45,776 bases of DNA from Catajapyx aquilonaris (GCA_000934665.2 JYFJ02003160.1:1-45776), one strand, 5' to 3'. Shown: positions 9,401-44,726, numbered from the stretch's first letter. Translations and numbers: made by a program. Notes: generated from the letters alone by a model not told the origin.

Positions 9401-11362
9401 GAGAGGGTAAAGGCCATAGGAAAAATAAAAAATAAAAAAAGAACTCTCGCATTATATCCAGCGATGATGGAAGAAGGAAATGAAAAAAAAAAAGCTTAAC
9501 GATATTTGGATTGAAATAGCCGGCGGAGATCCGATTCTCATTAGTGCGCTGTTTTTTTCAGGGTCCTCCATTGAGAGAAAAAGAAATGCGAACTATATAT
9601 TGCCCATGGAAAAATACATCGTCGTGTGTTATCACTGTGCGCAGGACTATCCCGTTTCAATTAACAAGAAAGCCTCATCTGGGAAGGAAAATTCGATGGC
9701 AAACAGGTTTATGCTCCAAAGACTACGAAAAGCGCTCATCTCAAAAACAGCAGTGCGAATTGGTCTTGTTTTCCTGCTGAAATGACGAGCAATTAAGATT
9801 GATAGGATCTGAAGAATTTCAGGCTATTGTTTTCTTGTGGAACGTTTGATTCTTCACTCGTGTAATTACGCGTAGTAATAGGTGCAATCGGCGACAACAG
9901 GCTTAATTTGGAGGGGTTGCGTCCATCTTAAGACGCACGAGCGACGGCAACAGACGCAATTTCCGGATCGTTGAAACCGTTAGTGATTAGTAGACCACTG
10001 AGCAACGGTTGGTCCAGGATTTGTAAGACCCAAGCAAAATTTTAGACCATCACTTTTTTCGAGAGAGAGAATCAACAACATCGTAGCTGAAAAAGGAAGA
10101 AGATTGATACCAATTTCCTTCCGAGTGAGTCGCCATACAGGTTGAAAGACGATTCGCTTACAAGTCCAAGTGGGCTGAAAAAGTCTATTAACCGGGGGTC
10201 CCACCCCATTCACACGAAAACGACGTTATTACTTCGCTGGTGTCAAATGTAGCGTGTAGTACTTTTAGATTAGGAAAAAAAAAGTTCAGGATCCTAATCG
10301 AAAGATCAGCTTCTCAAGTTCGATCTCAAACCGATCGATGTAGTGTTTTCTTTTCTCCGTTCCTCTCCTTGCTAGATCCTCCTAAGGGACGAAAGGCCGA
10401 AAACCAATCTCCTGTGATGTGTTGGGTTTTTTTTTGGGTGGGCTATCAGTAGTTACTCTTTACCGAACGAAGAAAAAATATATATACACATTGATCAAAA
10501 AGTAAGGGGTGCAGCAAAATTTAATTCCCTGAGTAATGTGGGCATAAAGCTGCTCGGGATTTCTTAAATCCTTTAGCTTCGCGAAAAAGAGGCCTGGAAA
10601 GTATTGATTTAGAGAACTACACAAGTTTTACTTTTCTCTCTTCCTCGCTCTCTTTTTTTTTGTTCGTCGACTGAGATTTCAAAGTAGCCTAAACCCCTTC
10701 GGTAAGTCAACGGCAAGCAAGGTCGGCTCTTTTTCCCCACTAAGAAGCTCAGCGCCACTAATAGTCCGATTTCAAAAGAGTTCATTTTCTGGGAGAAAAC
10801 GCATCCGAGGAGATCAGCCAAAGAAACCTTCCCTGATTGGAATGGCCAATGTTTCCGGAAGACCCACTTACATATCGCAGAACTATTTCCATGAGTTTTT
10901 TTTTTCGTTTGCTCGCTAACATAGGTCCCTCTCCGAATATTTTGTGATGAGTACATCAAACTCTTCTTAGCGTAATTTTTTTGATAAAAAATCGTAGGCC
11001 TTTTGACCCCCCCCCCNCCCCCCAAGCTGACCTCCTTCTCTTGCGAATGTAGGTCTTTGTGTCTCCGCCCAGGGCCATCCATATTTTTGGGTGCAGTAAA
11101 TCTCCAGTGGTGGCTCCCACTGAAACTAATTGCAGAAAGCTGTCCCCTCTCAATTAAACCCGCCCTTTCTTTCCAATTAATTTCCCTCGCCCAGAAACCC
11201 GGACCCCCCATTCCACGCTCGCCCAGCAAACCAACTCAATTTTCATTTCAACGCACGTCTCCATCAGCCTTAGTGGAAAAAAAAAGAGTCACATCCTGGC
11301 CTGTATGCAACCAAAGCGCCTCGATTGCTCTACATTTCATCTACATTTCAGGCGCAATGACT

Positions 11363-13878: not shown

Positions 13879-16333
13879 ACGGGTTCACTTGTGTTCACAG
13901 GTTGGGCAAAAAGCTTTTCTGAATCTCCTGGAGGTTCAGTGTCCGCTTGGCAGCGCCAGAAACAAAATTATGCGGCCGGCATCCAGTGCTGCAGGTCACC
14001 AGAGTCATCGTACAAAGCTGTCATCTGCTGATGCAATTACGCCGTTCTGGATTCCTGGCTGGATGTAATTAAGCCATTGATCGACAGGAAGGCCCCGCCC
14101 CATTTATGCTGCTCTCGACTCATCACAAGGCTCCCCCACACCCTCTCCCTCCGAATTCACAGCCGCGCAAAAACCCGATTCTTCACTTTGCACCGCATAT
14201 TAATCATCCCCGTGGCACACAGGCACTGGGGTGGTTTTATTTCCTACCTTAGACACGGCTTCATTCCCCACCCCTTAGGAAGGAACCCTCCTTTATCGGT
14301 TTTCCGACTGGTTTTTGCTCCCTGATGAGAAACCCAGCTGCGAATTCGCAAGTCAGACTCGCAGACTAAGATGCAACTAAGATCCCAATTTTGCTACAAG
14401 TGCACCTGTGCAGTGTCAATTATCTCCATGTGCTGTACACTCATTTCCTGCAATTATTTTCATTACACAATTCAACATTAGTCACGTGGAAGCATCTTAG
14501 CTTCCCTCGTCTTAACACGTTTGTTTGTAAATTCCCAGCATCAATTATTGTGAAGTCTGGAGGTGCCTCCGTGTGAAGATATACCTTCGGGAAATGGCAC
14601 AGCATTTCGCAGGCTTCACACCCGCCTGGAATCCCCTCCGTTGTTTCGCATATGAATTAACAAGCCTGGGAAAATCCAGGGACAGCACCCCATCAATTTA
14701 GGTCCGGCCTTTTGTCTTCCCATCCTGCTGCCTCCCTGTCTTAATGGAGGATGCTAAGGGTGCTAATGTCTTTCAACTTGTGTTAAGGTGGGGGATGACG
14801 GTACAGCCACGATACTTACCGCGATACACAAGGTGGTACACTGTCCAAGTACACAGTAACACTAGAGAGTGTTGGTCGGTGTCTTTGGAAAATGGACCAC
14901 CCTGTAGGCATAAATGAGACCACCCTCCAAGTTTGATGAGGCCGACGAGGAATCCAATTAGCGCCCACTAAGAAGTGCATTGTTGGTCTAGAACAATGAC
15001 GTTCTTGGCTAGGACATCCCACCTATTTATGACAATTTTTTTTTGCAAAAATATTTGCAGCATGATGAGGCTGGTATGCGGTTTGTTAGCTTGCAGCGGG
15101 TCCAGTGTTTTTTTTTTTGCTGGAATTCGTAAATTTATGACGCCGTGTGTTAATCCTCTCTGGCGGATTCATGTCCTGCGAATCCTATTATGAATGTTGT
15201 TTCTTACCGCAATCTGTCGTCAGGGACGGTTCCTGTGGTCTGGCTCCACAAAAGGTGGTTTTCGCGTAATTACAAAATTGCATGCAGGCTGGTAAAACTG
15301 CGTGTGATTCGCCAAAATTCACGCCCGTAATGTTTCTACTAAAATGCTGCTAATTGGCGTAAGAGCATTCAATGCTCTTCAGCAACGCATTTTTTTTTTT
15401 TACCTACTACTCATGCCGTAGTCCTAGTACTTGTTATTAAGCAGCCTTAAGCAACAATTCATCCTGATATTATATTACAGTACCATATTTCATACAATGG
15501 GACAAATTACAACTTTTTTATTCATTTCAGATTTCACATACAGAGGCGCGAATATTGACATTCAGCAGATTCATCACAGCGGAAATTTACCTTTCTTAAT
15601 ACAAAATGAGGAAATTAAAAAAGAGGGTATTATCTACGGCTTGCCTTTTTGTTTAATAAAAAAAAAATCTCACGTCAGTTGGCGAGCACAACTCTCATTA
15701 CTTGTATGGAATACTGCTAATGAGAGCTGTGCGCTCCAATCCAGGCCAAATGCAGTCATGTGTCAGCTCGGGGGTTGACGCTGTGTGAACCATTGTTTCC
15801 CTCCGGCACAAACCATTGTTCAAAAGTTTAATTTGAAGGTATATGCAAATGGGGGAGGTCCACGTGAATAGACGACGATACCTCTAGTGAATGCCGGAAA
15901 CAAGCTTTGCATATATCCAAATGGGGAAAATACCGAGAGTGGGTCCTGCTCCCGTAATTATCCAAATGACATTTTGTAATCTATGACTCGACACCAGAGA
16001 CAAATCCATCCCGATTCCCAAACAAAAAAAAAACTAGTCTACACTGACACGGAATTACTCATGCGGTTGCGCTGTTCAATGTATTGCAACGGGGATCTAA
16101 TGGAGCTTGCAACTCGCCACATATTGAGTTATCACTAGGATTGTCATGTACCGCGGCTCTAAAAACGAGCGTGGGAAACTATGACTGCAGCTTTAATTTT
16201 CCGCTTGTTCCCGGATACACTCCCAAAATCACCATCGGATTTTAGCTCATTACCATGTAATTAATTTCATCCCCTGACTGCTGCCAAAGGATGTGTTGTT
16301 GTTGCCAGAAAAATTACGTCCAAAAAAAGGTGT

Positions 16334-16397
16334 CTATTGCTTCTTCGCACCATGGGCACTGACCTGATGTCGGACCAATGCATCAGACCGAGTATAT
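16334..16397 (-). CDS. hkb-like exon 4 (end of finger 4 and stop)
   Basis: Acceptor ttttcttacacttcag|a; reads (R)[20 protein letters not shown] with TAG at 16336-16334. Confidence 0.85.
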
Positions 16398-19300
16398 CTG
16401 AAGTGTAAGAAAACAGTATCATTTTTTTCCCCAACCATCATCCAGTCCCTATTGGCTTTATTAAAAAGCGATGGCACACCCTGCAGGCAAAAACCCAGGC
16501 ACAGAAGCAATTTGCATGTTCAAACCAAAAAAAAAAATGCATTCACATTGCTGGCAAGCATTTCGAAACGTGCCATAATTGCGCTCATTGGAACGAGAGA
16601 GCATATGAAAATGGGCAGGCCACGTATTATCTGATTTCACCACCGGATTTACAATGATACTAATTGATCACCCTGCAAATTCCGTCAGGCCACAGAATCC
16701 AATACCCGTCGAAATGAAGCTTCCCTCCTGATTAAAAAAAGCAGGACAACACACCTTGGAGCAACTGAAAGCAACCTCTATTCCCCATGATGTCCCCTTC
16801 AAAAAAAAAAAGGGTCAGGAAAATCTCTCTCTGGAGGCACCGGCCTGAAGCACCTTCCCTGAATCAACACCGCAGTGTTGTTTCTGGCCCCGAATTAAGT
16901 GCCAGCAGCCGCCACCCTGAAAGGTCACAGGGCTTTTACTTCAACCCCAACGGGTTCCCCGGTTAAAAAATAGGTCCGGAAAAAGTACGGCAAAGGCGTG
17001 TTACTGCGATGTTGGACAGGTCTTACAGCACTGGTCTACGGGCGCATTAGACGGTGATGCTAGCCCAAAGTTGCTCAAACTTGTCTGAGTCACGAACACA
17101 GCGAGTCGGAGGCAAACCCGTGGAATCCACTGAACAACACGCCCTTCAATTTTTCATGTAAATCTATACGCAATTATCATTAGGTGCAGTAGACAGCCGA
17201 GTGCAATAGGAGATGGGGTTGCTGCTCTCTTTAATTAGTGCTAATTATCTTCAGTAAGGAGGCTGACCAAATTACATCCTTACATAAAATGATCACCTGG
17301 TACCCAACACTTCCAGGAAGTTTCTCAGAATCATTACGAAACACCCTGTGTATTACATTCCGCGTTTTAATTCGCCAGTCCGTCCGGTTTGCTGGGTGTT
17401 TATACTGTTTATACGGCGTCGTAATGTCCGCTTCAACACCCCCCATTCCGCCGCAATTACGCTAAAAAGTTACAGCACGAGATGTGTTGGCCAGAGAAAT
17501 TGATACAACAGAAGCATGCGAACAACATTAACCCATCAGTAAGATTGGTGTAAGTGCACTCCAGACGAGTCCTAAAATCCGGCCACATTGCACTGTTAAA
17601 AAAAACCAGTGATGCTCTAACAGCACAGGATCGCCCAAAAAGTGATCTGTCCACCAAAAAATACAGTAGTTTTTTTCTTGGCTTGGGTCCCATTCCACTC
17701 ACGCCAAGCACGCAATTTAACCGCACCTCACACAATGTCCAGATTTTCCTCTCAGCACAAAGTGGATTTTCATTGCCCCCGGACCTCGTCCTAAAGAGGA
17801 TCCACAATGCATGAGGATCAAAAATTCAGGGAACTGGTTCTGACTGCCAAAAAAATGTGCTTGCATCCACTTCCGCATCCTAAAACCCAGCATTTTCTAT
17901 CACATTTCCGGGGCTTTTCTTATAGGGTAATCCCACAGTGCGTTGACAGATCAAACACAAGAGACAGACGGAATGTAAGGGGGATTGGAGGAAAGTGTCA
18001 ATAGTAGGCGACGGCAAGAGGCTTAAACTGAGAGCCTCTCCCTAGTTTCAAGGCAAGGAAAAAAAAAAAGGTTTTATTTTTTAAAACCCTTACCTATTTC
18101 CGCAGCCTGAGACGCTGCACAAGTAAATCCTCTTCTCCGAGGCTTTTAAGTGAGTCTTCTTATGCTTAGTTAGGTGATCCTTCCTGGAAAACGTCTTCTG
18201 ACAGTCCTGAAAACAAGACAGGAATCAATACATGCCACTTTGTCCGAAACAATTATTTTTTTAAAAAAACAATGAAGCGGCATATATATATCCCGCTTCA
18301 TTGTTTAAAAATGGTTTAAATGGTTTAAAAATATATTAGTATGAGATTTGGGAAATTAGCTAAACTATACCTACAATTCCACCACTTTTCAGCAACAAGT
18401 CGATAGGTTAGTCGATAGGTTCAAAAGTTACTCAAATTGGCGGGGGAAAAATTGGGCGTAGCCTAAGGGCTCATTCGGACTCCTGCCATCTGGGGGAGGC
18501 AACTATATATACGTATTTCTTCAAACAAAAAAAAACTGCAAAATTCATTTAAAAATATTGACGACTTTTTTTTTACATCTGTTTACACTATTTGGGCTAT
18601 AGGACCCCCATTGCATACTACATCGGACGAAAATGGTTGGAGCGAATATTAGGACCGTGTAATCATCAGACGTGGATCAAACGAGGTTCCAAATCAGTAG
18701 GGGGGTCAAGGCCTATCTGTTATGCATGCGATGCTGTCTGCACCAGAGGCGGATGCAGCGCCAAGCAAGAAGCAGCCTCAGAGTTCATCTAATTAGGAAC
18801 GGAGGAAATCCGGACGGACGTGATGTATGGGAGGGGCTATACCTGCCTTTTAGGATTAAAATATCAAAGAGGATATATATAGGCATGTAGGGTCTAAGAA
18901 CAGGTTACAGTATGGAGCAATCGATGTGCTGGAGGGGGGGCCAAAAACTGTTAAAATAATACATGCGAGGGTGAGGTCAGAGGGCAGAGCTCTCGAGGGG
19001 GGGTAATCCTCAGATCCGAATTTTCTAAAAATGCAAATGAGTCCGCTCATGAATGAATATGAATGCATCGGTCGATTCAAACCGGTTCACAGTTCATTCG
19101 CTGTGTGACAACCCAATCGGGAAAATAGTACAGTCAGAATAAAACTAACATTACTGTTAGAGGTACTTAAAAAAAAGTGTTTACATCACGCTGCTTGCCT
19201 CTAACAGTAAGTAAAAATTGGTGTTACAGCAAATTGATTCTCTTTGGAATATCGCTTTTTTGTGGCGCAGCTGTTCATAACTTTAATCAATCATTCTGCG

Positions 19301-22300
19301 CTCTGGTTACCCTTCAAATAACGGAATTTGCATGAGTAAATGGCCCGGAACATTCGCTCAGTAAAATCTAGCGGCGTATTTTGCGGCGATTGGCATCTTT
19401 GGTTGTCCCAAACAACAGAGTCCCTGGGCAACAATACAATGTTTACATGGTGACTTGTATTCTAAACAAGTCCCCCATCAGACCCTTGAAGTTACGGACG
19501 TGTCAGTCCAGGGCTCTACCTCTCTTTGCCCCCCGTCCAAACATCCGCAAAGAGCCATGGCTCCTAAGGTCAACTACAACCGGTTGATCCTGAAGGCCAT
19601 CTGCGGACTGCAGGACCGTGGAGGGTCATCCATGGCCAGGATCAAGGAGTATGTGGCATCCCACAACCAGGAGATGACCGAATCCCAGCTGAGCCGAGGA
19701 TTGGTCTTGGCTCTCAAGAGAGGGCTCGTCGACGGCCTGTACAGCCAGTCGGACAGGGGGTCATTCCGGGTCACCAGGAAAGGGGTCAGTTGCATTCACA
19801 ATTTGTCACCATTTCATTTTTGCGGAACACCATTGTTGCTAATGACTACTGTCGTCAACAACAGTTGGTAATAACATGGCCTGTTTTTCAGAGGCGCGAG
19901 TCGACGTCAACAGCCCTGGATCGTCGTACCGCTTGCAACGGGCACATCCACCACCACAAAAGGAAGAAGGGGAAGAAGGGGAAGAGACGTGGAGGATGCC
20001 GAGGACTAGGAGGAAGGAAGAGGAGGAAGGGAAAGAGGAGGAGGAAGGGAAAGAGGAGCAGGAAGGGAAAGAGGAGGAGGAAGGGAAAGAGGAAGGGCAA
20101 ACGTGGATGCGGATGCTAAGAAGGGCAGATGCGGACGTAAGTGTTCACACTGGCGTCCATGTCTTTTGGGGGGTGTCCATCGACCCAATGACAATTCTTC
20201 TCTTGATTTGGTCAAATTTCAGGTTTGACCCCTTGGAACCCCAGGAAAAGTGGCAACGACGAAGCAACATTGGTCCGCCTCAAGAGTCGAGGTATTTATC
20301 AGCATCCAGGCTTTTTTTTTACACCCGGAGGCACCAAATTAAAAGTGTGGAAGAAAGTGTCGCGATAGTAGATCTGGCAACAGAGCAACAACCTTTTCGA
20401 TCGGAATAAACTGATAAAATTCAACTGCGTAATTTTATTATTGAACTTGTAGGAACTTGCAAGTTGTTCCAACCTGCAGTTTGTTGACAGTCAGGTTGAG
20501 TTGGTACGGTTTGCATTTGGAGTTAGCGCAACTGGAAAACAACAATTACCATGACCACGGTAGCTAATCGCAAAATGGTTGCACGTTGACAAACGATAGT
20601 TTTTTTTTTTTAAATAAGCATATTACTTGCGGGGTCATTTCCGCTGAAATCTTGGTTCAGATGGTCTATACCATGCAGTGGGACGGTTCGGCGTGTGACA
20701 GATGATAATTTTATAAAATGAACTCATGAACGGAATTGCACAGTGAATGAACCTAGCTAAGAGACCTGACTCTTGCCCCCCATCCCAGACAATCCTAGAA
20801 TCGCCAAACTTGCAGCCATTCCGGGATAACTAGGGCTCATCGCAGATGCTGAGAGCCTACCTGACTTATCGAGCAATCCAGGGCACCCCCGAAAGGGGAA
20901 GGCCTGCAGCAGGAAAGTTGAAAACGAATGAGAACCTCTCTTCTTCCCTAACAACCCCCTGTTAAACATTGGGAGGGGGGGGGGGGTAACTGCCTTCCTG
21001 CTTGATGATGATGATGAGCCAGATAACGATGATGGCTGCGTAGATTGTGTTAAAAGATATTCCTCCCATGGGGAAAAGGACTGTGACGGTGTCGCCCCTT
21101 CTTAACCTCCCCAAGATGCTACTTCGCCCCGAACAAGAACATCCATTTGTAACTCAAAATGTCTTCCGCAAACCTCCTTTTTTCCAGTTTGTTTTACAAT
21201 AATAATAAAAAAACTTCATTCAAACGGTCGTTCAACCCCAATCACTCTATATAATGGCGCAGTATCCGACCAGTTCACGGCATGCAAATGAGCCGCGATG
21301 GACTTTCCCAGCATCGGTTTGCATTACCAGTAATTATTTACGCATACAGTGGAGAGTGGTACACTCTTCTTCGAGTTACAGTTTCATGAGTTGCGGTGTG
21401 ACACTCGCGGATAAACAGCAGTGGAGTGACACCGTCACAACAGTTTACATCCAACCAACCTCTTGAGAGCTTAGCGGCTAGCTGCAAGTGCCTCGAGTTT
21501 TAAGCATCACGTACAGTGCAGCTCCCCAAACTACTGTAATTACGGCGGTTTGTCCCCCTGGAAAGTGGAAGGCTTCTACTTTGAAGGAAGGAGAAAAAAA
21601 AAGTATATTGAGTTACTTAAAAGTTTGGAAAGGACATCTATGACAGACTAGGCCTGTGCGGATGTTCCAGACAGAAAACGCCACAAAATTCTGTCATAAT
21701 ACCACAAGTTTATCCTGACTATTCGGAGCAACCCTCCATACATGAGTGCTCAGCGGGCAGTCCGACTTGCAGGATAAACGTCCTGCAAATTTTATTATGA
21801 AAAAATATTGCTGTCATTTTATATCTCGTCCATCTCGTCCATGACCTCCAAGGCAACCGGGTTAAACTAAAATAATATATTGATTGAAAGATGACGCTTC
21901 TAACAATTCCAGTGCCACCTGCACCCTTTTTCCTTCCCTTCTGACACTTCAATATCACAGCGTCAGATCCAGGTTGGTCGCAGAAGGAAGAGAAATGTTC
22001 ATTTTCACCACCCCCGCAATCCTCTTCTTCTCCGATCCCAAAAAACTCATTTTTTTAACCAAAAAAAAATATGGGGTAGGGGGGAGGGGGGGTATAAGCC
22101 TTAGAGCAGATATAGAGGAGAGAAAAAAGCCGGCCTGGTGATGAATGGGAGCACTTCTCCGAACTCTCCCAAGTGTCTCCAGGCTGATAAATATTCATGA
22201 TACAATATGTGCTGGATTCCATTCCTATACCTTTACTCATTCACCTGCGCAATTTTTTTAAAAAAATTAATCGCCTTTTTAAAAAATTCCCCAATGCTCA

Positions 22301-25300
22301 TGTTACACCTGCAGCCCCGCCACACTTTTCGTATTAATTGGCAATTAATTGGCTCATTAACACTGATTAATTGTAAATATTCAATATAATGTACTACATC
22401 ATTTTGTACTAAATTGGTCATAATGGCTCGTAACGATATTCAATGCATATATCCACTTGTTACACTGTATTTAAGAAGCAGTTATTGGATGGAAGGTGTT
22501 ATGCAATAATGTGTCAACCCACGAAAAAATGTCAAAATTAAGTTAAGCCCAAAGGATCGTACTTAATTCAGTTAAAAATCAAGCTGGCGAAATCTTCATA
22601 CTTCTGCCATAAATGACCGAAAAGGACACTGTGTGACATTCAAAGCCCCTTTTCTCAGAACTGTGGGTTGACTCATTATTGTATAACCACCGTCCACATA
22701 ATCGAACTGATGAAAAAAAAAATTCCTAGTTTTTAACATATCGACCACAGTAATTGAATGAAAAACAAATTTTGCCTGCTGACGCCGCAAGCAAATGCTG
22801 GTTTTCCCAAGATTAGAAACATTGATGAGAAAATGAAGTGTTGGCAACGTCAATCTAAGAACCGCTAATTATTGGGTGTTGGCACAAGAAGCCCTGAGAA
22901 AAGTTTTTGGGACCTTGTGTGCTGCTTCCAGGGCAGTTTATACACACAACAAGTTTTCTTCCGACAGCCTCTCATCTGGGGCAGAACACGATGTCTGCAG
23001 CTAGCAGCACTAGTTCTCAACTTAAATATTTCATCTCAGCAGTTGGCTTGCTGCGGACAGAGAATGGCAACAACAAAATTGAGAGCAGAAAGAAAAGGAA
23101 AAAAAACTTGCTTCCGTACAACTACAAAAGCGGACTTCCACAGACGGATGCCTTAATGCATAATTAAGAGATCAATTAGGCAGCAGCCTGCCCCTCCCTA
23201 ATTAAACCCTTGTTATCGCCATTTCGCAACAAACTCTTGAGGAGCACTCGGGTTAAAACGCAATTACAACGTCTGAGTTGTGGGGGTTTTCAGCATTTTG
23301 GGGAGAGTTCAGTGTTTCTTTTTTTTTACAATTCTCCAGGATTAATCCCATGGCACTACACAAGCCAGGGAGTCACAACTTCCCTCATCTGTCAGTGCAA
23401 GTTTGGAAAAATATTGGCTTTTGGAGCTTAAGTGTGCCAGGAGCCAAAAATAAAAATCCCATTGAAGATCCCACCACCTTTTCCTGTGGTGTCAACATAA
23501 TCGATAAACGGTTTTCATCAGTTAGAAACACTGTTCCTTTTGGTTGCATACTGGAATATACTTAATTCTTTTCCAGTAATACAAAAAAGCAAAGTCATTT
23601 ATGTCTTTGTTGGTATTTAATGCATGCAAATGATCAAGTGTGACAGTAATAACTCCCTACAAGAAATTACTGGCAACGTGCTGATCTGTGCAATGTCCAC
23701 AACCATAAGCTTCAACTCTGCCTGCTAGAGCTGAAGCGCATTGTTTAGTATGACCTGGAAACAGGAAGTTAAGCAAATGGGTGGTGACATGTTGAGGTGG
23801 ATTATCTCCACACGTGTTGTTAGATTTTATCGGTAGCGATGGCGGAGTGAAATGCTTTCAACTGTGCACACATGGCTTGGCATGTCTCACTGAATTTCAG
23901 CACTCTCCTGAAGTGTAATGCACTTCAACACACCCACCAATAATGCCTTCCTGGCCCTTTCCTGCTATAAAAATAGGGAAACCGCGTCTCCAGGAATCAA
24001 TATCAAACATGTGGAATTGCCTGCAGGCATGCCATGTGTCAAGTGCTACCAGCTCGCAAAGTCATAAGTCAGCAATGAAAGTAATAAGTATATTACACGT
24101 ACCATAAAAATTATACATGACATGAAGTTGCAAAATAATCATGTGAGTCAACCATCATGCACGTTCAGCCAAATAATTGCATCAGTCCCTTCAAGGCAAA
24201 ATCCAATAGATAACTTTTTTGACCAAAATTGAATTGTTCGGGCCAATAAAACTTCCATATTGAATAATTTACGCTTCATAATAGGTACAGGCAGTTCAAG
24301 TAATAACAAGGAAAATTAAATATTCAAATTAGCAAAGGGAACTACTAAACTGTCAGGCTTAATTTATTGCACCAGTACTGGACTAAAAAGGAAGAGCTCC
24401 TGCACAGTACATTGCCTATTAATATTTCATTAATAATGCAGAATATTCAACTAACACGTTGCTAAAGTTTTAGTTGGTCACCTACTTCCCTATGAACTTA
24501 CGTGGCATATTTACAGGCGTGATCATTCAACAAGTTGGGAAAAATGGACAGTCAACCAGCGATTGCCAACAGAAAAACTATCAGCTTTACCTTTCTAATG
24601 ACCTTACACAATGTCTACATGCCAATCAATTGAAGTAACTTCATACCTGGCACAGAAATGGTTTGTCTCCGGTGTGGACACGGCGATGTCTAGTGAGTTC
24701 CTCGTTGCGTGCAAATGACCTTGTGCAACCAGAGACGTGGCACTGGAAGGGTTTTTCACCTGCAGAGAAACCACATAAATTGACGTTATAGAATATAGAG
24801 GGGTCATACACCTATAAGAAGTGGGACATATCTATTAAATTTTTTATGGCTTTACGTGGAAATTGCAAGGAGTGCAAGCGAGATACAGGTCTGAATTATC
24901 CCCCTGACTTTCTCTGCAGTGTCAGGTTTCCTTTTCAATAATATTCAGGCAGGGGGAAATTAGTTTTGACGGAATTCCTATATTGGCAAGTGAAGAGTCA
25001 TCTGGAAAATTGATAGGAAGGCTCTCTTGCCACTTTGATTATGCCAAGCTGAAATAAGGCTGGCAATTCACTCTTTGCAGTTTGATAAGAAATTTGAAAA
25101 TAAGCTTTCTTCTGCTGAGCTGTAGAAGAGAAAAAAAAATTCATTTAACATTTTTTTAGATAAACTGACGCTCGACTTGGCTCATTGCCTTTGAAGGTTT
25201 ATGAAAATTCGACAAAGCAATGTGCTAAGTGTTAATCTGCCAGGATGAAACACCCTGACGTCATTCACTCCCACTTCAAATCGCAATATTAAGAAATTCT

Positions 25301-25963
25301 GCTCCATCATAAACTCCATTCTTGTATCAAATCTTATGGAATACGACTCGCACTCAACAAATTCATCTGCCATTTCTTTCTTATTTTCCTTCAGTTCTTA
25401 GTACCTTCCCATTTTCTTCAATTCACTTCAGTTTGTCGGCTAATTATGCTTAAAATGCCAACCACTCCCCATTCAGTCATAAATTAATTCAGAACATATT
25501 AATTGCTGATCGCGGAACCAAATGCAGCCCATCCATAATCAGAAATTTTACACAGCACAGTTACACTGAAATGCACCATACCTGTATGAATACGAATGTG
25601 ACCCACAAGTTGAGCGTGATTATAACATGTGACATTGCATAATTTGCATGCCCATTTCCGCCTCATGGGCTGTGGCTTAGTTTCCTGCACATCCCCATCA
25701 GTTTCGAAAGGTCGCCAAAAACTGCCTGCACTAGTTTTTGTACTAGTTGTAATCTTGGGCAAAATGGGGCCGCAAGTGATGGATGGCTTCAGTTTCCTAG
25801 TAACTTCCAATTTCTTATAAGCTGTTCTAAGGCGATAGTCACACCATGCTTCTCTGCATGTAAAGTCTATGAGATCTCGTGTGGTGCACATGCAGTTAGA
25901 TTCAAACTCACTGAATCCATCACCCGGCTGGAATATGTTCACATGCAAGTACGTTGTGCACAT
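16334..25963 (-). CDS. hkb: Huckebein-like C2H2 zinc-finger transcription factor (4 fingers), spliced
   Basis: Hand-assembled complement(join(16334..16397,18094..18206,24647..24759,25582..25963)); start is ATG 25963 or 25891. All introns are GT-AG with matching phases 1, 0, 2. Fingers: [113 protein letters not shown]. Recognition helices (QLx[14 protein letters not shown], RxDHLxKH) match my recollection of Drosophila Huckebein; WRPF motif lies N-terminal to the fingers. The symbol is a family-level call. Confidence 0.8.
18094..18206 (-). CDS. hkb-like exon 3 (finger 3 and start of finger 4)
   Basis: Acceptor tgtcttgttttcag|gac, donor ag|gtaagg; [37 protein letters not shown](R). Confidence 0.9.
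19389..19454 (+). promoter_or_regulatory. Putative promoter of the protamine-like gene: reverse CCAAT plus three RFX X-box-like motifs
   Basis: attgg (19389-19393); gttgtcccaaacaac (19402-19416); gtccctgggcaac (19420-19432); gtttacatggtgac (19441-19454). All lie about 100-170 nt upstream of the ATG. Confidence 0.45.
19557..20119 (+). CDS. Histone H1/H5-derived protamine-like basic nuclear protein (winged helix plus Lys/Arg-rich tail), 151 aa
   Basis: join(19557..19784,19892..20119); start context gccATGg; intron gtcagt...tttttcag, phase 0. Exon 1 [37 protein letters not shown]...[22 protein letters not shown] has H15-domain hallmarks (AI..L.DR.GSS...IK.Y; ALKRG; GSFR). Exon 2 ends in a 53-aa tail with 17 K, 17 R, Gly and Cys. 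AATAAA at 20405-20410. Confidence 0.85.
24647..24759 (-). CDS. hkb-like exon 2 (finger 2)
   Basis: Acceptor tttctctgcag|gt, donor cag|gtatga; (G)[37 protein letters not shown]. Confidence 0.9.
25582..25963 (-). CDS. hkb-like exon 1 (N-terminus, WRPF motif, finger 1)
   Basis: Part of ORF 25499..25963; ends HIRIHT-g|gtatgg. The 5' boundary is uncertain (ATG 25963, or acceptor at 25928 with ATG 25891). Confidence 0.8.
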
Positions 25964-30485: not shown

Positions 30486-33400
30486 TTAGCCAAACTCAGG
30501 TCCCAACAGCTGCTCCATATTCCCCGGATTGTTCTCTGGAATGCCACCTGGTGCTGACTCTGCCTTGGTTTCTCCCTCTGCCTTGTACAGAATTTCGTGG
30601 CATAACGGACACCTGTCCTGCACATACAGCCACTTTCTCAAGCAGATGCTGTGGAAGAAGTGTCGACAATGGGTGATTTTGGCTGATCGCATCTCCTGGT
30701 AGCATATTGCGCATACGTCATCCAGAGTTGCCAGCTGGTGTGCTGTTGCCTCCGGAAGGCTATTGATCTTGTTCACAGCTGTCCTTCGCTTCATAAACAC
30801 ACTCCAACCAGAGCGAGCCTCGCACCATATGTTGAAGTAAGCATGTATGCACATCATGATGGCACGTATGGTGCCACCTGACTCAAACAGTAGGATCCAG
30901 GCACCATTGAAGAACAGGAAGATTCCAAAGAAGAACTCCACCGTGTTGCCAAACGCACGTATGTAGTACACATAGTCATCCAAACCTTCCCAAAATGTTG
31001 CCCGCCAGGCATCAGCCAAGAAGAGAGCATATATGGCCAGAGAAACCAGCACTTTGACCACAACTTCAACACTGAAGGCTGATACAGCCAGTAACCAAGT
31101 GTTAACTGTGTGGTGTGTCCACAAATAAAATAGCAGCACAGTTGGTGCCACCAGCAGGAAGAGGCAGACCGACAATGCCCGCACGTGACGATGCATTGCC
31201 GGATTGTGCGATGCACTCAATGACATCATCAAGGGATTGACCATGTTGTGCACAAAATGAAGCAGGGCTGTAAACAGGAGGCAAAAGTTGCGACAGAGGC
31301 GCACAAACCTCTTCTCTGGCTCCAGAGTTGTTAACCCAGTTTGAAGTGCCAGTATGAAGAATAATATAGCTGACACTGTGCCTATACTCCTATCATCCTC
31401 CTCATCCACTAATAACAGCCGCTGTAATGCGCACCCTACAAAGTGACATGCACGTGATATGACACTAGTCATCCCTAAAACAGCAGTCAATGTCTCACAA
31501 CCACGAATCAGGGCTGACACAACAGCGCCACTTCCGGCCCCACTGCCAGCCCAAGTACTACCAGCTATCTGTTCCCCAACTCGCACCACCCAGAAAGTAC
31601 GAAGCACACACGGTACATTGATACGTGTCCATTCAGCTTCTAGTAAGTTGTGAAGCCCAAAGTTACGCACATACGCCCGTGTGTGGGAAACACCATGACG
31701 TAAGACATGAAGGCCAGATGGGGCACCAGTCCACAGGGAGTGCTTGACAACCAGAAGTGGGATTACAGTCGCAAAGGCAGGCAGGTGCTCCAATACAGAG
31801 GCTGGAAGAGGCAGGGCCGCTGCCACAGTTGGAGCTGCAAAGCAGCATACCACACAGAGATCCAGCACCTACAACATATAAGAAACCAATTTTGAGGGAC
31901 GATATCAAATTATTCACGGAGCCACGAGTTAAGATTCTTCTTCCCTGACCACAGGAATACAGAAATTGACCTTCATAAACATTTCTGAGTCATCTTTTCA
32001 CATAAGACAAGGTCATTCTAACCAGAATAACATTGTTTTCAACTAGTAAATAACTTATTCACATACGCTCAACTTCCACTACCAAGTTGAACGCAAAAAA
32101 ATATTACACCATTTGCACATTATTGGTAGTGGTGTGGTTTCTTCGGATGCATTTAAAGGTAAAAAATTGAGTACGAACAGCTAATTTTGAACCGAATTGA
32201 ACAGCGACTTAAAACTGCAACCTTGAAGATGAAAACATGTGCACTGCAGAAAATCAAGTATGTGCAATCACCAGCTTCCTGACTTTGCAAAAATACAAAA
32301 CTACATAAGAGGCAATTTGTGCAGCACAATACTATTCAAAGTCACTTCCTTCGACGTCTTGAAAACTGTGCACACTTATTGCAGTAGGAGTTTACTTTGG
32401 AAATTGCAACATTATTTTTCCACATAAAACTAATAATGAAGTATGATAATAATTACCATTTAATATCTACTAGTAGCACCCTTCATTTTGACTTGCATTC
32501 AATTTGACTTTAATATGCAATTAGTCAGTGTGTGCCATATTGTTGTCAATATGCCATATTGTATTGTATTATCATTTTGTATTATCATATTGTATTGTCA
32601 ATATGCCATATTGTTGTCAATATTTGCTCACCAAACTTTTTGCGATAGAAGACACGTATAAAAGGCTTACATGAATCCTAAACTAAGGAATAAAAATACT
32701 GTACTATTACCATGCAACAAAATATTTGTCACGTTGATAAAATTTACATTACCTGTTGCCTACCCGTCTGCCCTCCTCCCCCTGCATTCCCGCTCCCACT
32801 GCTGCTCCCTGCACTCCGGAGGTATCCAAACCCTACTCCCAACGCCATTTGCACTGCATAGTTGGCGACCATAGGCACCAGCACAGTGTTCGAGTCTAGT
32901 ATCCTCGAAGGACTGAGGGCTGCCATGGCCTCGGAAAAACTTCCTGGAACTTCTACTTGCGGTGTGACTGTTGCAGCATCCAGTCGAGAACCCAGGATCG
33001 CCCTGGTCATGTGCAGGTTGCTCCAGTAGGACAGTACCACAATCAGGGTGGACAGAAGATGGCAATACACTATCAGCAAGTGCCTGGTGTTCAGCAAGAA
33101 TGTGCACAATGCAGCACTAAAACCTGAGGAATAAATAAAATCACTAATCACAGCTGCTTATGATGCTGCTACACAATCTACAGTGTGTCCCAAAAATTCT
33201 GGTCCTCTTTGTTATCGTAAATTTTGCTCCTTGCTAGTTTTGCATGCTCCAATCAAGGTGTCATACATAATTGGACACCTCGATTAGGAGGACTGCTTCT
33301 GACAAAATTGCATCTCCCAAATGTTCATTAATTCTTTGGCATTTGCAGGCGAAAAGTATGAAATTCACAATCCAAATAAATGAAGATTTGGCACAACGTG

Positions 33401-34219
33401 GTTTTAACAATTTTGGCAAACATGAGCCACCGAATGTTCGATCAAATCCATGTCAAGCTTATGACCTAATAATATCACAAGAATATGCAATCTATTGGGA
33501 GGTACCAGATGTTCACATTTCTTACCAGTGAATAGAAAATGAGAATAGGAATGATAACTCTCTATCTCTCTCTATCACATAATGCAGCAGAAAAATGAAC
33601 CATTGTTGTAGTGTCTACATATCTCTGGCACGCAAGTCTCACCCCCTTTATCCCTTCTGGTCAGCTTCATTCATCGCAGAGAAAAAAAAAATCCCTGTGA
33701 CAATTTACACTTGTATAATCCATCACAACATGTAGCACAAGTATTGCGCCCGAGCTGCTCAAAATGATAAAAAATGAAAATAATATGAACAAGACATCCC
33801 GAGAGAATTCTGTTAACAAAATATCAACAATAAGAAGCATACACCTACTGACCCATCTCCTCAGAATATTTACACCTTCTTTTGTGTCTTCAAATTAAAA
33901 TTATATTGTCATTAAAACAACGTATTACATCAAAATACAGACCTAGACAGCAGAGGAAGAACTTGCAAAGCAGAGTAGTAACAGGTCGAGCAAAGAAGCT
34001 ATCTTGGAAGAGCTGCTGGGCTGCGGAAGCATTATTGAGCGCTGCAATGGTTGGGTGGAGGTTGAGTCCTTCGGGTCCGACTTTTGTGAAGGTGGTCTCG
34101 GTCAGGCCAAACCCTATCCGGAGAAACTCATCCATCACAAATAGAGGTGGGACGCGAAGGACAACGTCCAGCACGTCCACCAGCCGGTTCTGCATCACAT
34201 GGGCTGCTTCCACCTCCAT
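30486..34219 (-). CDS. Trc8: TRC8/RNF139 homolog, multi-pass ER RING-H2 E3 ubiquitin ligase (about 676 aa)
   Basis: complement(join(30486..31868,32753..33123,33943..34219)); phases 1 and 0, GT-AG. N-terminal VDVLDVVLRVPPLFVMD, many hydrophobic segments, LDDYVYYIRAFGNTVEFFFG, and RING-H2 CAICYQEMRSAKITHCRHFFHSICLRKWLYVQDRCPLC. Likely 5'UTR acceptor at 34247 and candidate upstream donor at 36254. Confidence 0.93.
32533..32623. repeat. Short AT-rich tandem repeat in a TRC8 intron
   Basis: Reiterated tgccatattgttgtcaata / tattgtattatca units. Confidence 0.6.
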
Positions 34220-34585
34220 CGCTAGGCTTGCCTTATGATCCTACGGCTGCAATAAATTGCTATTATATTACAAATTCATCAAGAAAACGCTAACCGTCAG
34301 TTACCTAAAAGCATGTCAACAAAATAGCGGCATTTTATGCTGAATATTCGCAAAGATTGCTCCAAGTGCAATTATCTAGTATTTACAAAATTATTACAGG
34401 CATGTAGCACTACTTAATATATATTAATGGCCGACAATCTAGTGTCTGTTATCTACTGTTGGTTAATCCCTGGCTAACAACTGATAGTATTTGCCAGCTG
34501 TTTCAGTGGCGCAACCAAAGATTACATACACCATCACATTTCTAGCTAGTTAAAGATGGTTTCAGCAATAACTTTCAGGTAATGA

Positions 34586-34660: not shown

Positions 34661-35652
34661 CATTTCACTGTATTATCACAGGCCCACTGGCGTGCTTTTC
34701 CTACATGGTTACTTACTATAGTATGCCTTAGTACTCGTAACGGTTTGAGTGCTATTGATAGAACCAGGCCTAATAAGCTTCCACGCAATGAGCACTTGCA
34801 CTGTCCTTGCAGGGTTGAGAATAGCAATGATGTCACCAAAAATAAGCACACTACACTATTTCATGGCACGTAAAAATTAAATTTGCTTATTATAATAATT
34901 CAAAACACTTAACTTTGCTTTGAATTTTCGTTCCACTGCTAGCTACGGTTAAGTTAGCAGTACGTAGCAGTGCGACAAAAATTATACTGATTTAAGATGC
35001 AGCGTAATTGTGATTTCCTCGCTGCTGGCCACTTTACCTGCAGAGCAATCCTGTGAGGCGTTCAACGCAACGTACTGAGGCATTGCCATCACACCACGAA
35101 TTACCATGAAGTGTCTCTAAAATAACTTCTGTCACTAATAATTCATTCCTGGAATATAAACCAGCTCCCTTGGATCACCCAGAGGTCAGCCTGAGGGTGT
35201 GTTCCAACCAGTTCCAACCCGTTTACAAAGTTCGCAGTACTCCCAAAGCACCCAAACAAATGGGATGGGGGGAAAAAACCCCCCATTGGTAATTCCCCTC
35301 GAGGCGAAAGGTGGTTGCCCCAATGTGCCCCTCTGAACAGCAGCACATGGCTGGCACCCCTCCCCACGCGAAGTGGTACCAACCAGCAGCTGGAGGTGAG
35401 GTGCCACCGTTCGACGGCCTCTTCCCTGGTTGTCCGGCAGCAGCCTGGACAGCTCCATCGTCCCCGTCCGATCAGACGGAAGGGAAAGGTTGCTCTGCTC
35501 AGAGGAAAATGGCCGACATTTGGATCGAACTTGAACGAGACCATGGATTGTGCATTATGCTTGTACTTGCCACTACAAAACGACAGGTGGAGACATCGGC
35601 GCTCTCAGACAGGGAGATTTGAAAATCCGAGTGCGCACCACAGTTCGCGCAT

Positions 35653-36238
35653 ACAGCCAAAATCTTTTACCGCCAATTCCCTGACAGCCAAAAACAGCCA
35701 AAATCTTTTTCCGCCAAAACGGGTCCGCCAACGCCAAGGGTCGCCTGCCTGACAGCCAAAAACTTCTACCGCCAACACACATTTTCCTTTACCGCCTATT
35801 TCCCTTACAACCAATTCCCTTTACAGCAAAAACCCCTGACAGCCAAAAACTCTCACCGCCAATTCCCTTACCGCCAAATTCTTTTACGCCAATTCCCTGC
35901 CAGCCAATTCCCTTTACAGCCAAAACCCCTGACAGCCAAAAACTCTCACCGCCAATTCCCTTACCGCCAAAATATTTTACCGCCAATTCCATGACAGCCA
36001 AAATCTGTTTTCGCCAAAACGGATCCGCCAAGGGTCGCCTCCCTGACAGCCAAAAACTTCTACCACCAACACACCTTTTCCTTTACCGCCAATTTCCCTT
36101 ACAACCAATTCCCTTTACAGCAAAAACCCCTGACAGCCAAAAACTCTCACCGCCAATTCCCTTTACAGCCAAAAACTCCTGACAGCCAAAAACTCTTACC
36201 GCCAATTCCCTGACAGCCAAATTCTTTTACCGCCAAAA
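35653..36238. repeat. Complex tandem array of acagccaaaa / ccgccaattccc units with higher-order duplication
   Basis: Many copies of ctgacagccaaaaact and accgccaattccc; the block beginning ccaagggtcgcct recurs at 35734 and 36028 (294-bp spacing). Confidence 0.9.
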
Positions 36239-37969: not shown

Positions 37970-40201
37970 TTATGCAGCCTCGCCTTCGCCTTCCTCCTCC
38001 TTCTTGGCGGTGAGCAGACCAATCAGATGGTTCAGATCGATCATGTTGTTGTTGTCGATTTGCATCTGCTCGTAGGCGTCATCCACCTCGTCACTGGTGA
38101 ACTTGTCGCCGAAGGTCATCAGCTGTTGGCGCAGGCTGGAAACCACCAATTGGCAAAGTTCAATAGGATTTAAGATATGACTAGATTTGACAGCCGATAT
38201 TTAACTGATTATAAGAAGCCAATAGGAAATGACAATGGGCTGGATTTCGTTCACAAGCTGGTTGATTACCATTAACACTGATTAGTCAGACATTTGGCAA
38301 TGTAAGCCAGCAGATTTATGGCCATTATAATCAGGAGAATCAGCTGATCAACATATAAAGTTATCACTTATTGGTTTTTGGTCCCCGCATTTACCTATCG
38401 CCGTCCATCTTGCCCTTTCCGTTGTCGAAGGACTTGAAGGCGGCGACCACAACAGCGTCGTCGTCGGTGGCGCCTGAGCCTGACATGCGCTCTCCGAAGA
38501 GGGTGAGAAGCTGTGTGAAGGAGATGGGTCCAGGGGCCTCTGCCAGCATGTCATCCAGCTCCTTGTCGGTGGACAGCTTTCCGATGAGGTCGAAGGTCTG
38601 CCTCAGGTCGTTCTTGCCAAGGATGCCATCCTTGTCAGCGTCCATCATCTGGAAGCCCTCCTTGAACTCGGCCACCTGGGACTGGGAGAACATGGAGAAG
38701 ACATTGCTGGACGCCCTGGTTGCCTTCTTGGACCCCCTGGACCCTCGGGAACCACCGCCGCTCTCAGCTGCAGGGGCTGCAGCGGGTGCTGGGGCCTCCG
38801 CCTCCTTCTTGGACTTCTTCTTCTTCTTGTCATCCGCCTAATAGCCAAAGAAACAAAACAAAGGGAACAATCAGGGGAAACCGTGTCAGTGGCGCATTCC
38901 TGGCTTCAAGAAGCGCGATAGTCACTCGAGTCCTTATGCAAGGAGGCTATAAATAGATGGAGGTTGCGGATGCTAAAATAGTCCGTTCACAATCCTCCCC
39001 ACAATATCACGTATCCAGGCCCATTGTGGAGGGAAACAAAAATACCTTATGCCACGGTTGCACTAAGGTCTCAATACATGACAAATAAGCAAATTATATA
39101 GTCAAACACCTGTGACTATTAGAAGGAGGATGTTGCTATTGGACGCGGAAAAAGGAAGTGGAGTTGGCGCTAACCAAGAATTCCTACAGTGAGTATAGTC
39201 ATTACGTGATTAGTTAAGTTCAATGGGTACATCGGGTAAGATAGTACCGAAGTTCCAAATCCTATACAATTAAAAGTGAAAAATGTACTGATTTTGTTAG
39301 GGAAATCTCCACAGCAGCGAGTGGCGTCAATCAAAGGTTGGTGACATGACTCATGTTAATTAATTGGCTCTCCTGCCAAATATCATCCAATTGTAGACCG
39401 GGTCATCTACCCAACAGGATATTTCCTGTCACGGAAATTAATGCCAAAGATTCTCTTGAAATGGGGCAATGAATTCCTGAATGTTCCAATAACACGATAG
39501 TAACAAACCATTATGACTGTATGGAACCTACTTCAAAATTTGACCTCAATAAGGTAGGCCTAAACCAATTATGATAGGGACGAAATTCAAAGTAGGAATC
39601 TCCAATATCGAGTTATTTCGAAGACCGGCAAGAAAATTCTCCACTCGAAATAAAAAATCGTGGTAATCCACATTCTTTTAAATTGGTGTTTAATATTTTA
39701 AAAAATCTAATTTCACCGTGCAATGTAGTTCTGAAGTTCTCGATCTGCAGAAGTGAATCCAGATTCGCAATTTTTTTAAAAAAGAATATTGAAACCTGCA
39801 GCACTAACTTTAGATATTTTCTCTCTTCCCGTTCGGACTTAGATAAACAGGAATAAGTATCTCGCGATGGCGAATAACATGTTTTGCACACATTCCTGGC
39901 AACAAGTCACCAACTGACGTTAACGTAATAAAACGCCGCCGAAAAACACATTTCTCAAATAATTTAGGTTCATATTTCCACACTGGCAAATCCACACTGC
40001 ACTATGCCTACATACTTGTCAGTTTGTCAATATTTGTCATAAGTGTCCACAACCTGCAAATGGCCACATATTGTCGAAAACGAGACACTGGCAGGTCTGT
40101 TGCAGAAGGCAACTCACTAACACCCGAAGCACCAAGTCACAAGGGTCCAATAATGACAAAAGTGTGTCCGAAGTCCACAGGGCACCACATCCACTCACCA
40201 T
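37970..40201 (-). CDS. Mlc2: Muscle myosin regulatory light chain 2 (203 aa)
   Basis: complement(join(37970..38135,38395..38837,40199..40201)); ATG-only first coding exon (aaaATG|gtgagt). Protein MADDKKKKKSKKEAEAPAPAAAPAAESGGGSRGSRGSKKATRASSNVFSMFSQSQVAEFKEGFQMMDADKDGILGKNDL...MTFGDKFTSDEVDDAY...EGEAA*, with EF-hand and SNVF motif. Confidence 0.95.
38947..38956. promoter_or_regulatory. MEF2 site in Mlc2 intron 1
   Basis: ctataaatag matches CTA(A/T)4TAG. Confidence 0.55.
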
Positions 40202-43043: not shown

Positions 43044-44726
43044 ATGGCGCATGAGGCATCGCGTCACCAGCATGGGGCATCACCCGATTCATCCAGAATT
43101 GGCCGACTCTCTGCCCTCTTCCTGCTCTACTTTGTCCAGGGCCTTCCATATGGCTTCCAGGACAAGCTTCTGCCCGTCCTGCTCAGGAAAGGTGGAAAGA
43201 CTTACACCCAGTGAGTCACATTATTTATACTCATTGCAGCATAGAGGTGGCAGCACTGCACAGCCACGTTGCCTTATTGAACAACACAATACCGTATCCT
43301 AAAATCGTATGTAATAAAAATACTGCATACTCAATAATACTACTTGATGTACATGATAAAAAAATATTTCAGCTGATAAATGCAAAGCAAACACCTTACT
43401 AGAAAAATTATAGTGCCACTTATTTGGTATAAACGACAACTTGTCTTAGGTTACGTACTGTACATGTAACGTACTTATACTGTACAGTAATACCAAAATG
43501 AGCCAGAAAAGCAATTTAATACATATTGTTTCAGATTGTCCCTCCTGAAGTTGCTGTTTCTTCCTTGGCTCTGTAAGCCGCTATGGGCACCACTGGTAGA
43601 CGGCTATGCCACCCGTCGCTGGTGGATCTTGACCAGCATGTCGTCAATGGCATGCTGCTGCTTTTTAAGCAAGTATATGCTGCGACTGAGGTCATAACAC
43701 CACAATGCAGGTTCGCTTTTGTCTCCTTCCAGCGACGGTGCCCTCTGGTCATTGGGAGTGAGCCTTCTGTTTCTAAATATGGCCTCGGCCACTCAGGATA
43801 TTGCGGTGGATTCCTTGTCCATATCCGTGCTGCCGCCCAGTGATCTCGGAGTTGGAAGTGCAATACAGGTTGTGGCTTACAAGGCTGGAGTTTTCTTCGC
43901 TGGTGCTGTGCTTCTATGGATCCAGATATGGCTTGGATGGTCCTGGATGTTCATTGCTTTTGGCACCGTATACCTAGCATCAGTTATATGCACTGGAAGA
44001 CTTCGCATTGTTTCTAAGGACCGCCGGCCGGAACGGAGCACAAAAGGTAAGTCAACACACTTTTGCGGTTTGATGCATCAGCTCACTTTATATATTTCAG
44101 CTGGATTTTTGGACATCTACCGCAAGGTCATCAGTGTCCCAGGCACCTCCTGGCTGGTGTTGTACCTCCTCCTGTACAAACTGGGTGAGAGAGGGAGCGG
44201 TGCGAACTTCCCACTATTCCTCCTGGATTCCGGTGCCTCAGTAGCCAGCCTCGGGTTCTGGAATGGCATCGTGGTTCAAGCTGCTTTGATAGCCGGGTCC
44301 ATCTATGGCGGACGTTGCAATAACCTGATGTTATATTCCACGTGGCGAAGTGTGGCCATATTGATAGAACATGTACTGATATTTGTGATCGGCTATTCTG
44401 GAACAAGTCTGAGCGAAAGACCTTGGTTGCTGATTGCATGCTTCGTGTCACATGCGTTTCTAAATTTTCTGGCTGGTGTGATTACAACGGCTACTTTTAC
44501 AATGCTAATGGCACAGAGCCAATCCAATGCACCTCCAGACATAAGTGGGACACACTATGCTACGCTTGCGGCTCTGGAAGTTGCAGGAAAGCTCATATTT
44601 GTGTCGTGCCTTGGACCACTGTTGGATAGAGCCGGGTTTTTCATGTCGTACTTCCTATTTTTCACTCTGTCCGTCCTGGTGCTGCCAGTGTTGAAATATC
44701 AGCCTCCACTGAAAAAGCAGGACTGA
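43044..44726 (+). CDS. MFSD3: Major facilitator superfamily domain-containing protein 3-like (AmpG/acetyl-CoA transporter-related)
   Basis: Exons 43044..43210, 43535..43668 or 43672, 43711 or 43733..44046, and 44101..44726. Motifs LFLLYFVQGLPYGFQ, LPWLCKPLWAPLVD, NMASATQDIAVD, YLLLYKLGERG, GTHYATLAALEVAGKL. Boundaries of the second intron are ambiguous. Confidence 0.88.

Follow-up and report, generated by a model that had tools for sequence, protein, structure and literature searches.

A putative H1-derived, protamine-like gene lying antisense within the intron that splits a zinc finger of a four-finger gene in Catajapyx aquilonaris

A 45,776-nucleotide stretch of DNA from Catajapyx aquilonaris (GCA_000934665.2 JYFJ02003160.1:1-45776; hereafter the window, meaning the whole of this stretch) contains what is, with somewhat better than an even chance, an ordinary nested gene pair, in which a host gene for a C2H2 protein with four zinc fingers carries, in one of its introns, an antisense gene for a protamine-like protein derived from the linker histone H1. 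The initial annotation had held that finger 3 of the host is split between its two cysteines by a 6.4-kb phase-0 intron (donor 24646, acceptor 18207), and that a plus-strand, H1-like and protamine-like gene lies wholly inside this intron in antisense orientation. The splice sites and reading frames bear out the split, the coordinates confirm the nesting, and Pfam together with the predicted fold agrees with the H1-like character of the nested gene, which also has a protamine-like basic tail.

The host gene can be read on the minus strand as four predicted coding exons, A to D (Table 1), whose joining gives a frame of 672 nt with zero internal stops and a protein of about 223 residues, provided that the first ATG is the start. 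All three host junctions have canonical splice sites and matching phases, and a finger or a linker is rebuilt at each of them. Exon A closes with ...I-H-T and the first base of a Gly codon (donor CAG/GTATGG); the rest of this codon lies in exon B, behind the acceptor TCTCTGCAG/GT. Exon B in turn ends at the donor CAG/GTATGA, with its GT at 24646-24645. Exon C is preceded by TTGTCTTGTTTTCAG, its acceptor consisting of a pyrimidine tract and CAG/GAC with the AG at 18208-18207, and it ends in phase 2 (TAG/GTAAGG); exon D is preceded by TTACACTTCAG. Pfam recognizes zf-met (E 1.5e-4) and, at residues 104-126, zf-C2H2 in exon A, and zf-C2H2 in exon B (E 9e-7) and exon C (E 5e-5). The match of exon C is restricted to positions 5-23 of the 23-position profile and begins mid-finger, which fits a finger whose start sits in another exon.

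An alternative at this level is that two different finger genes are involved, one with the exons at 24.6-25.9 kb and one with those at 16.3-18.2 kb, or that misassembly brought these exons together, so that there would be no single host intron. No annotated ortholog with contiguous sequence was found, which leaves this alternative some room, but the exons themselves make it highly improbable. Exon B breaks off behind the first Cys of a finger, and beyond its donor the frame stays open for one codon only before a stop; exon C is unable to stand alone, given a stop seven codons upstream in its frame and the truncated profile match just described. Joining the two restores a regular C-x2-C-x12-H-x3-H finger. 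Moreover, on the WT1 chain 6blw_A residues 1-37 of exon B correspond to 34-70 and residues 2-30 of exon C to 72-100, both without gaps, and on the EGR1 chain 4x9j_A exon B residues 1-37 correspond to 1-37 and exon C to 39-67; since consecutive positions are thus matched on both chains, the two peptides abut exactly as the halves of a finger do in real finger arrays. A six-frame scan of the whole window for C-x12-H-x3-5-H gave 11 stop-free matches, five of them in host exons, where two pairs overlap, so that the five stand for fingers 1, 2 and 3. Of the minus-strand matches downstream of exon B, only 18203-18150 shows a finger consensus (one at 21439-21386 lacks it), so that no competing second half of a finger with that consensus is available there. 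Finally, the interval of 16-26 kb contains no N, the single N of the window being at 11017, far from the nested pair.

The nested coding sequence (19557-20119) and the AATAAA that follows it both lie inside this host intron, 1350 bp from its acceptor and 4527 bp from its donor. Two exons separated by a short predicted intron, whose 3' end is CCTGTTTTTCAG at 19891, would encode a protein of 151 residues with an isoelectric point of 11.87. With a GC content of 58.8% in exon 1 and 57.0% in exon 2, against 42.8% in the host intron, the coding sequence forms a GC island. The nested gene is single-copy in the window, where no parent copy was detectable, and an origin as a retrocopy is disfavoured because the gene has an intron of its own. 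A transposon as its vehicle was also considered and rejected, as the open reading frames (ORFs) of the intron carry no Pfam domain and no flanking repeats of at least 30 bp are present: when 14 ORFs were scanned with Pfam, no domain was found in the six of the host intron, nor in the nine in or near introns, and a search of 15-28 kb for repeats of that length found none. An initiator-like word, TCAGTC, occurs 54 nt upstream of the nested ATG; we give it no weight, because it is found 30 times in the window on that strand.

Exon 1 of the nested gene matches the Pfam family PF00538 (Linker_histone) with E 3.1e-10 and 40.5 bits (cut-off 22.4), over profile positions 3-73 of 74. The domain begins at residue 6, so that there is almost no N-terminal tail. 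An AlphaFold2 model of exon 1, built on an alignment of 13 of the 21 distant HMMER matches described below, has a pLDDT of 82.6 and shows helices at 7-18, 26-36 and 42-59 and, forming a hairpin, strands at 62-64 and 69-72, in the order of a winged helix. When this model was compared with the PDB using Foldseek, the globular domains of H1.0, H1 and H5 ranked at the top (TM 0.77-0.82, root-mean-square deviation 1.2-1.9 Å over about 73 columns), with one MORF winged helix among the top matches. The three best results of an ESM Atlas feature search were Linker_histone clusters, with scores of 0.83-0.89 (below the 0.9 mark). We also mention rank 15 of that search, an arthropod cluster of proteins of about 167 residues with Linker_histone and DUF4777 (57% of members), as a possible lead to short H1-domain proteins; the nested gene itself has no DUF4777 match.

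The second exon matches no Pfam family and is dominated by basic residues, with 21 Arg, 17 Lys, 15 Gly and 4 Cys among its 75 residues and an isoelectric point of 12.0. In the last 54 residues of the tail, 17 Arg, 17 Lys, 14 Gly and 3 Cys are found, and Arg plus Lys reach 63%. Note also that over 19839-20409, scanned on both strands, three plus-strand and some minus-strand frames are open (Glu-rich, Gly/Arg/Glu and antisense Ser/Phe/Pro-rich). Gene finders could choose the wrong frame in this region, because the purine-rich repeat keeps the frames open.

Replication-dependent H1 genes have a histone 3' stem-loop and no intron, and their products have an N-terminal tail and a Lys/Ala/Pro-rich C-terminal tail. 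We examined whether the nested gene could be such a canonical H1 and rejected this identity: an Rfam scan of the window at gathering score returned no family, neither the histone 3' stem-loop nor any other, and the gene has instead an AATAAA, a predicted 107-bp intron, a scant N-terminal tail and a C-terminal tail of Arg, Lys, Gly and Cys.

This combination recalls the protamine-like (PL) proteins of Hymenoptera. In Nv-PL1 and Nv-PL2 of Nasonia and Am-PL1 of Apis, according to the published description, an H1-like winged helix at the N-terminus is followed by an unstructured, basic C-terminal half with several cysteines (PMC13148410). We read the nested product as a candidate H1-derived, protamine-like sperm nuclear basic protein, because its N-terminal winged helix and disordered tail of near-equal Arg and Lys, with Gly and Cys, match the PL layout; we regard the case for this function as about evenly balanced, within the broader picture of an ordinary nested pair. 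The proteins share with the nested product a short, very basic make-up, with an H1-type winged helix followed by a disordered Arg/Lys half containing Cys; they differ in size, Nv-PL1 having 216 residues against 151 here (PMC13148410; PMC12216123), and in distribution, the known proteins being reported as restricted to Hymenoptera, and the comparison is one of descriptions, not of sequences. If the protein acts in this way, its winged helix would dock on DNA or nucleosomes, while the basic tail would neutralise DNA charge and condense spermatid chromatin. The tail cysteines may cross-link, and cleavage may release a basic peptide, as is reported for the PL proteins of bees and wasps; according to Leyden et al. 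(PMC12216123), the sperm nuclear basic proteins of insects arise as precursors that are then cleaved.

Relatives of the nested gene are few. When 1.84 billion representatives were searched with HMMER, 21 of them matched at E up to 0.001, with identities of 24-47%; the best has E 2.3e-13, one match reaches 1e-10 or better and none reaches 1e-30. Ten of the 21 were looked up and proved to be nematode, beetle, scallop, alga and metagenome records, none of them named as a PL protein. A word-based search of longer proteins for orthologs of the nested gene yielded none, and of 508 pattern matches in a metagenome scan 0 were confirmed.

Several points weigh against the picture drawn here. The few, distant and scattered HMMER matches mean that no ortholog backs or dates the nested gene model. 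If the predicted intron is not spliced, exon 1 reads on to a stop at 19869-19871 and the protein is left without its basic tail; the frame of this tail hangs on that single predicted splice, and the purine-rich repeat leaves several frames open. Outside Hymenoptera, the PL genes of wasps are reported to be absent (PMC13148410), and what we claim is therefore a likeness of architecture, not homology. A basic H1 variant could equally serve in embryos, oocytes or soma. For the host, the true start codon and a possible 5' exon are uncertain, its N-terminus being predicted; the 26.0-30.5 kb between exon A and the TRC8 gene upstream were inspected for more host 5' exons, and no coding-looking ORF was apparent. 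A search for host orthologs, in which exon C with three extra in-frame intron codons was compared with longer proteins, gave no candidate sharing three 5-residue words.

The nested gene might thus be a real, replication-independent H1 variant with a role outside sperm, embryonic, oocyte or somatic, its Arg/Lys tail serving compaction or nuclear targeting. What is firm, an H1 winged helix and a basic tail, is present in every linker histone and fits such a variant as well. Against this, canonical H1 tails are rich in Lys, Ala and Pro and are not known to contain Cys. Near-equal Arg and Lys, many Gly, terminal Cys residues and the missing N-terminal tail are traits listed for insect PL proteins (PMC13148410), and nested genes of Drosophila are enriched for testis expression (PMC3814207), so that we consider a non-sperm variant unlikely. 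Less likely still is that the plus-strand frame does not work at all, being either a decaying H1-type duplicate or the remnant of a domain beside a chance-open, purine-rich microsatellite. Such a view would accommodate the repeat that is open in several frames and the absence of any homolog above 47% identity, that value itself holding over a short stretch; it is at odds with a 76-codon domain that is intact and confidently folded, with a first ATG directly before the domain, with GT and AG sites that are in phase and open precisely onto the basic frame, with an AATAAA beyond it, and with a GC content of 57-59% against 43% around.

The initial annotation called the host hkb-like, a label that is not supported. 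Sp/KLF proteins have three C-terminal fingers with a Cys spacing of 4-4-2. The host, as read from its exons, has four fingers with a spacing of 2-4-2-4. Huckebein (Hkb) has been placed in Sp/KLF (PMC2889900). The host resembles it in that its C2H2 fingers are broadly of Sp/KLF-EGR type, among them a C-x4-C finger whose recognition helix is rich in Arg, and differs in finger number and spacing, the two being set apart by the general definition of Sp/KLF and not by the sequence of Hkb. Membership in the EGR family was likewise rejected, since EGR1 has three fingers (4-2-2) with short linkers, whereas the host has a fourth finger and its last finger is C-x4-C. The linker between fingers 3 and 4, L-K-A-S-E-K-R-I-Y in exon C, is a nine-residue, longer-than-minimal one: it exceeds that of EGR1 or KLF4 by three residues (exon C residues 2-33 cover only 29 EGR1 residues, 39-67), so that a gap is needed there, while none is needed against WT1 6blw_A.

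Four fingers instead of three are also found in the Wilms tumour gene and in Drosophila klumpfuss (Seetharam et al., PMC2889900). Fingers 2-4 of the host, with Cys spacing 4-2-4 and RSD-type helices, and the longer linker between fingers 3 and 4 are collinear and gapless with WT1 6blw_A, and all nine PDB matches of exon D at E up to 10 are WT1 chains, although weak (best E 0.044). The resemblance has its limits. Host finger 1 is C-x2-C and nearest to Ikaros-type fingers, its best PDB matches being fingers of Ikaros, HIC2 and ZNF64 and not of WT1; the host protein is small, and a long N-terminal region was not found. WT1 introns fall in linkers, and the intron positions of the host are unlike these. 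An ESM Atlas search with exon C returned generic C2H2 clusters only. The layout of the host thus appears nearer to WT1/klumpfuss than to a three-finger, Sp/KLF-type Huckebein, and in our reading the host would be a small, lineage-specific or fast-evolving four-finger factor, with fingers 2-4 in the WT1/klumpfuss layout.

Nesting of this kind is common in Drosophila. The initial annotation had stated that opposite-strand nested genes of insects are often young and testis-biased, and the published figures for Drosophila melanogaster agree with it: nearly 10% of genes are reported to be in nested structures, with 71.27% of the nested genes on the opposite strand and 43.91% being expressed most highly in testis; the nested genes evolve fast and their hosts are conserved and often brain-expressed (Lee and Chang, 2013; PMC3814207). 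The Catajapyx pair resembles these Drosophila pairs in that a short gene lies in a long intron of a longer, transcription-factor-like host on the opposite strand, and in that the nested gene belongs to a type that evolves fast and probably acts in the male germline. It differs in belonging to a poorly sampled lineage and in that an intron is retained in the nested gene, of which no parent copy was detectable in the window. Because such nesting is common in Drosophila, an antisense gene, probably of the male germline, in a long host intron would be a textbook case, and the interruption of a zinc finger by this intron is not known to matter for the nested gene.

Transcriptional interference between the members of nested pairs has been proposed from RNA-seq (Assis, 2016; PMC5174743), and the initial annotation had suggested either such interference or mutually exclusive expression for the present pair. 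Here the host would be transcribed from 24.6 towards 18.2 kb and the nested gene in the opposite direction, and the polymerases would therefore meet head-on. A bolder version of the picture, which we hold to be doubtful, is that an H1-derived protamine-like protein without detectable relatives in sequence arose or persisted far from Hymenoptera, placed head-on in the intron within the DNA-binding domain of a lineage-specific, WT1/klumpfuss-like factor, and that transcriptional bursts of the nested gene in spermatids would collide with the making of the full host protein and shut it off.

The age of the nesting was approached by synteny, using the ORF of the neighbouring TRC8 gene as an anchor, which led to 26 metagenome loci whose best segments are 32-83% identical to it. 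Neither gene of the pair was found when the six exon peptides were compared by tblastn with these loci, of which only one (L016) reaches 10 kb downstream of TRC8, the others stopping after 0-3.9 kb. Below E 0.001, tblastn gave only two generic finger matches, both in L016 and on the strand opposite to its TRC8 match. The anchored search says little on the age of the nesting, because L016 (52% identical, and so distant) is the only locus to extend far enough. About 3-4 kb downstream of its TRC8 homolog and on the opposite strand, at 14890-15480, this 47-kb metagenome contig carries an unrelated gene whose tandem C2H2 fingers number at least five.

Table 1. Predicted features of the window, counted from its first nucleotide; host exons are given in reading direction, and a slash marks a splice junction.
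Feature	Coordinates	Strand	Description
Host exon A	25963..25582	-	Open frame from first ATG (25963), about 100 codons, then finger 1 (C-x2-C)
Host exon B	24759..24647	-	Linker EKPF, finger 2 (C-x4-C), linker T-G-D-K-P-F, first Cys of finger 3 (F-L-C-Q)
Host intron 2	18207..24646	-	6440 bp, GT-AG, phase 0; cuts finger 3 between its two cysteines; holds nested gene
Host exon C	18206..18094	-	Starts D-C-Q-K-T-F: second Cys of finger 3, helix, H-x3-H; then linker and C-x4-C of finger 4
Host exon D	16397..16334	-	Helix and histidines of finger 4 (H-x4-H), five further residues, TAG
Nested exon 1	19557..19784	+	76 codons, linker-histone (H1/H5) winged helix; ATG at 19557, first in frame
Nested intron	19785..19891	+	107 bp, phase 0, GGG/GTCAGT ... 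TTTTTCAG/AGG; predicted from sequence only
Nested exon 2	19892..20119	+	75 codons and TAA, basic tail
Tandem repeat	20012..20093	+	18-bp purine-rich unit, 4.6 copies, 93% matches; encodes most of the Arg/Lys/Gly tail
AATAAA	20405..20410	+	Likely polyadenylation signal (motif only), 286 nt past the stop codon
TRC8/RNF139-type RING gene	30489-34240	-	Directly upstream of the zinc-finger gene, same strand
EF-hand exon	38394-38837	-	Lys-rich and Pro/Ala-rich N-terminal extension; Pfam: EF-hand only
MFS / acetyl-CoA-transporter-like ORF	43698-44723	+	342 codons, MFS_1 E 1.6e-10, weak Acatn match

Among the other features of the window, the TRC8 gene has a large last exon with TRC8_N (E 6e-147) and a RING domain, and further TRC8_N exons at 32747-33157 and 33893-34240. 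Of 8000 candidates scored against its 460-residue ORF, 1051 matched at E up to 1e-20; the best 120 of the 1051 are 63-71% identical, and those of these 120 that carry an organism name are all insects (Hemiptera, Orthoptera, Blattodea, Lepidoptera, Hymenoptera, Odonata, Coleoptera, Trichoptera and Phasmatodea). These matches would place the window in an insect, and identities of 63-71% among the matches listed point to a lineage without a close relative in the protein collection searched. The EF-hand exon at 38394-38837 we take to resemble insect myosin regulatory light chain. On the plus strand, several overlapping long ORFs at 35100-36200 repeat one short peptide pattern many times over, which suggests a tandem or low-complexity DNA repeat, and a Glu/Lys/Arg-rich open frame at 418-849 has no Pfam family and is dissimilar to the nested gene by tblastn.

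As to what the pair means, its layout is routine and would add, at most, a single further case in which interference of a germline gene with its host can be examined. For the annotation of this genome, the host is corrected to a four-finger and not an hkb-like gene, and the nested gene is of a kind that gene finders easily miss. Among insects, the sperm nuclear basic proteins of only very few species are known. If the reading given here is true, the candidate, with its H1 winged helix and its Arg/Lys/Cys tail, in a lineage without close relatives in the collections searched, would contribute one further case to the question of how frequently H1 has yielded protamine-like proteins.

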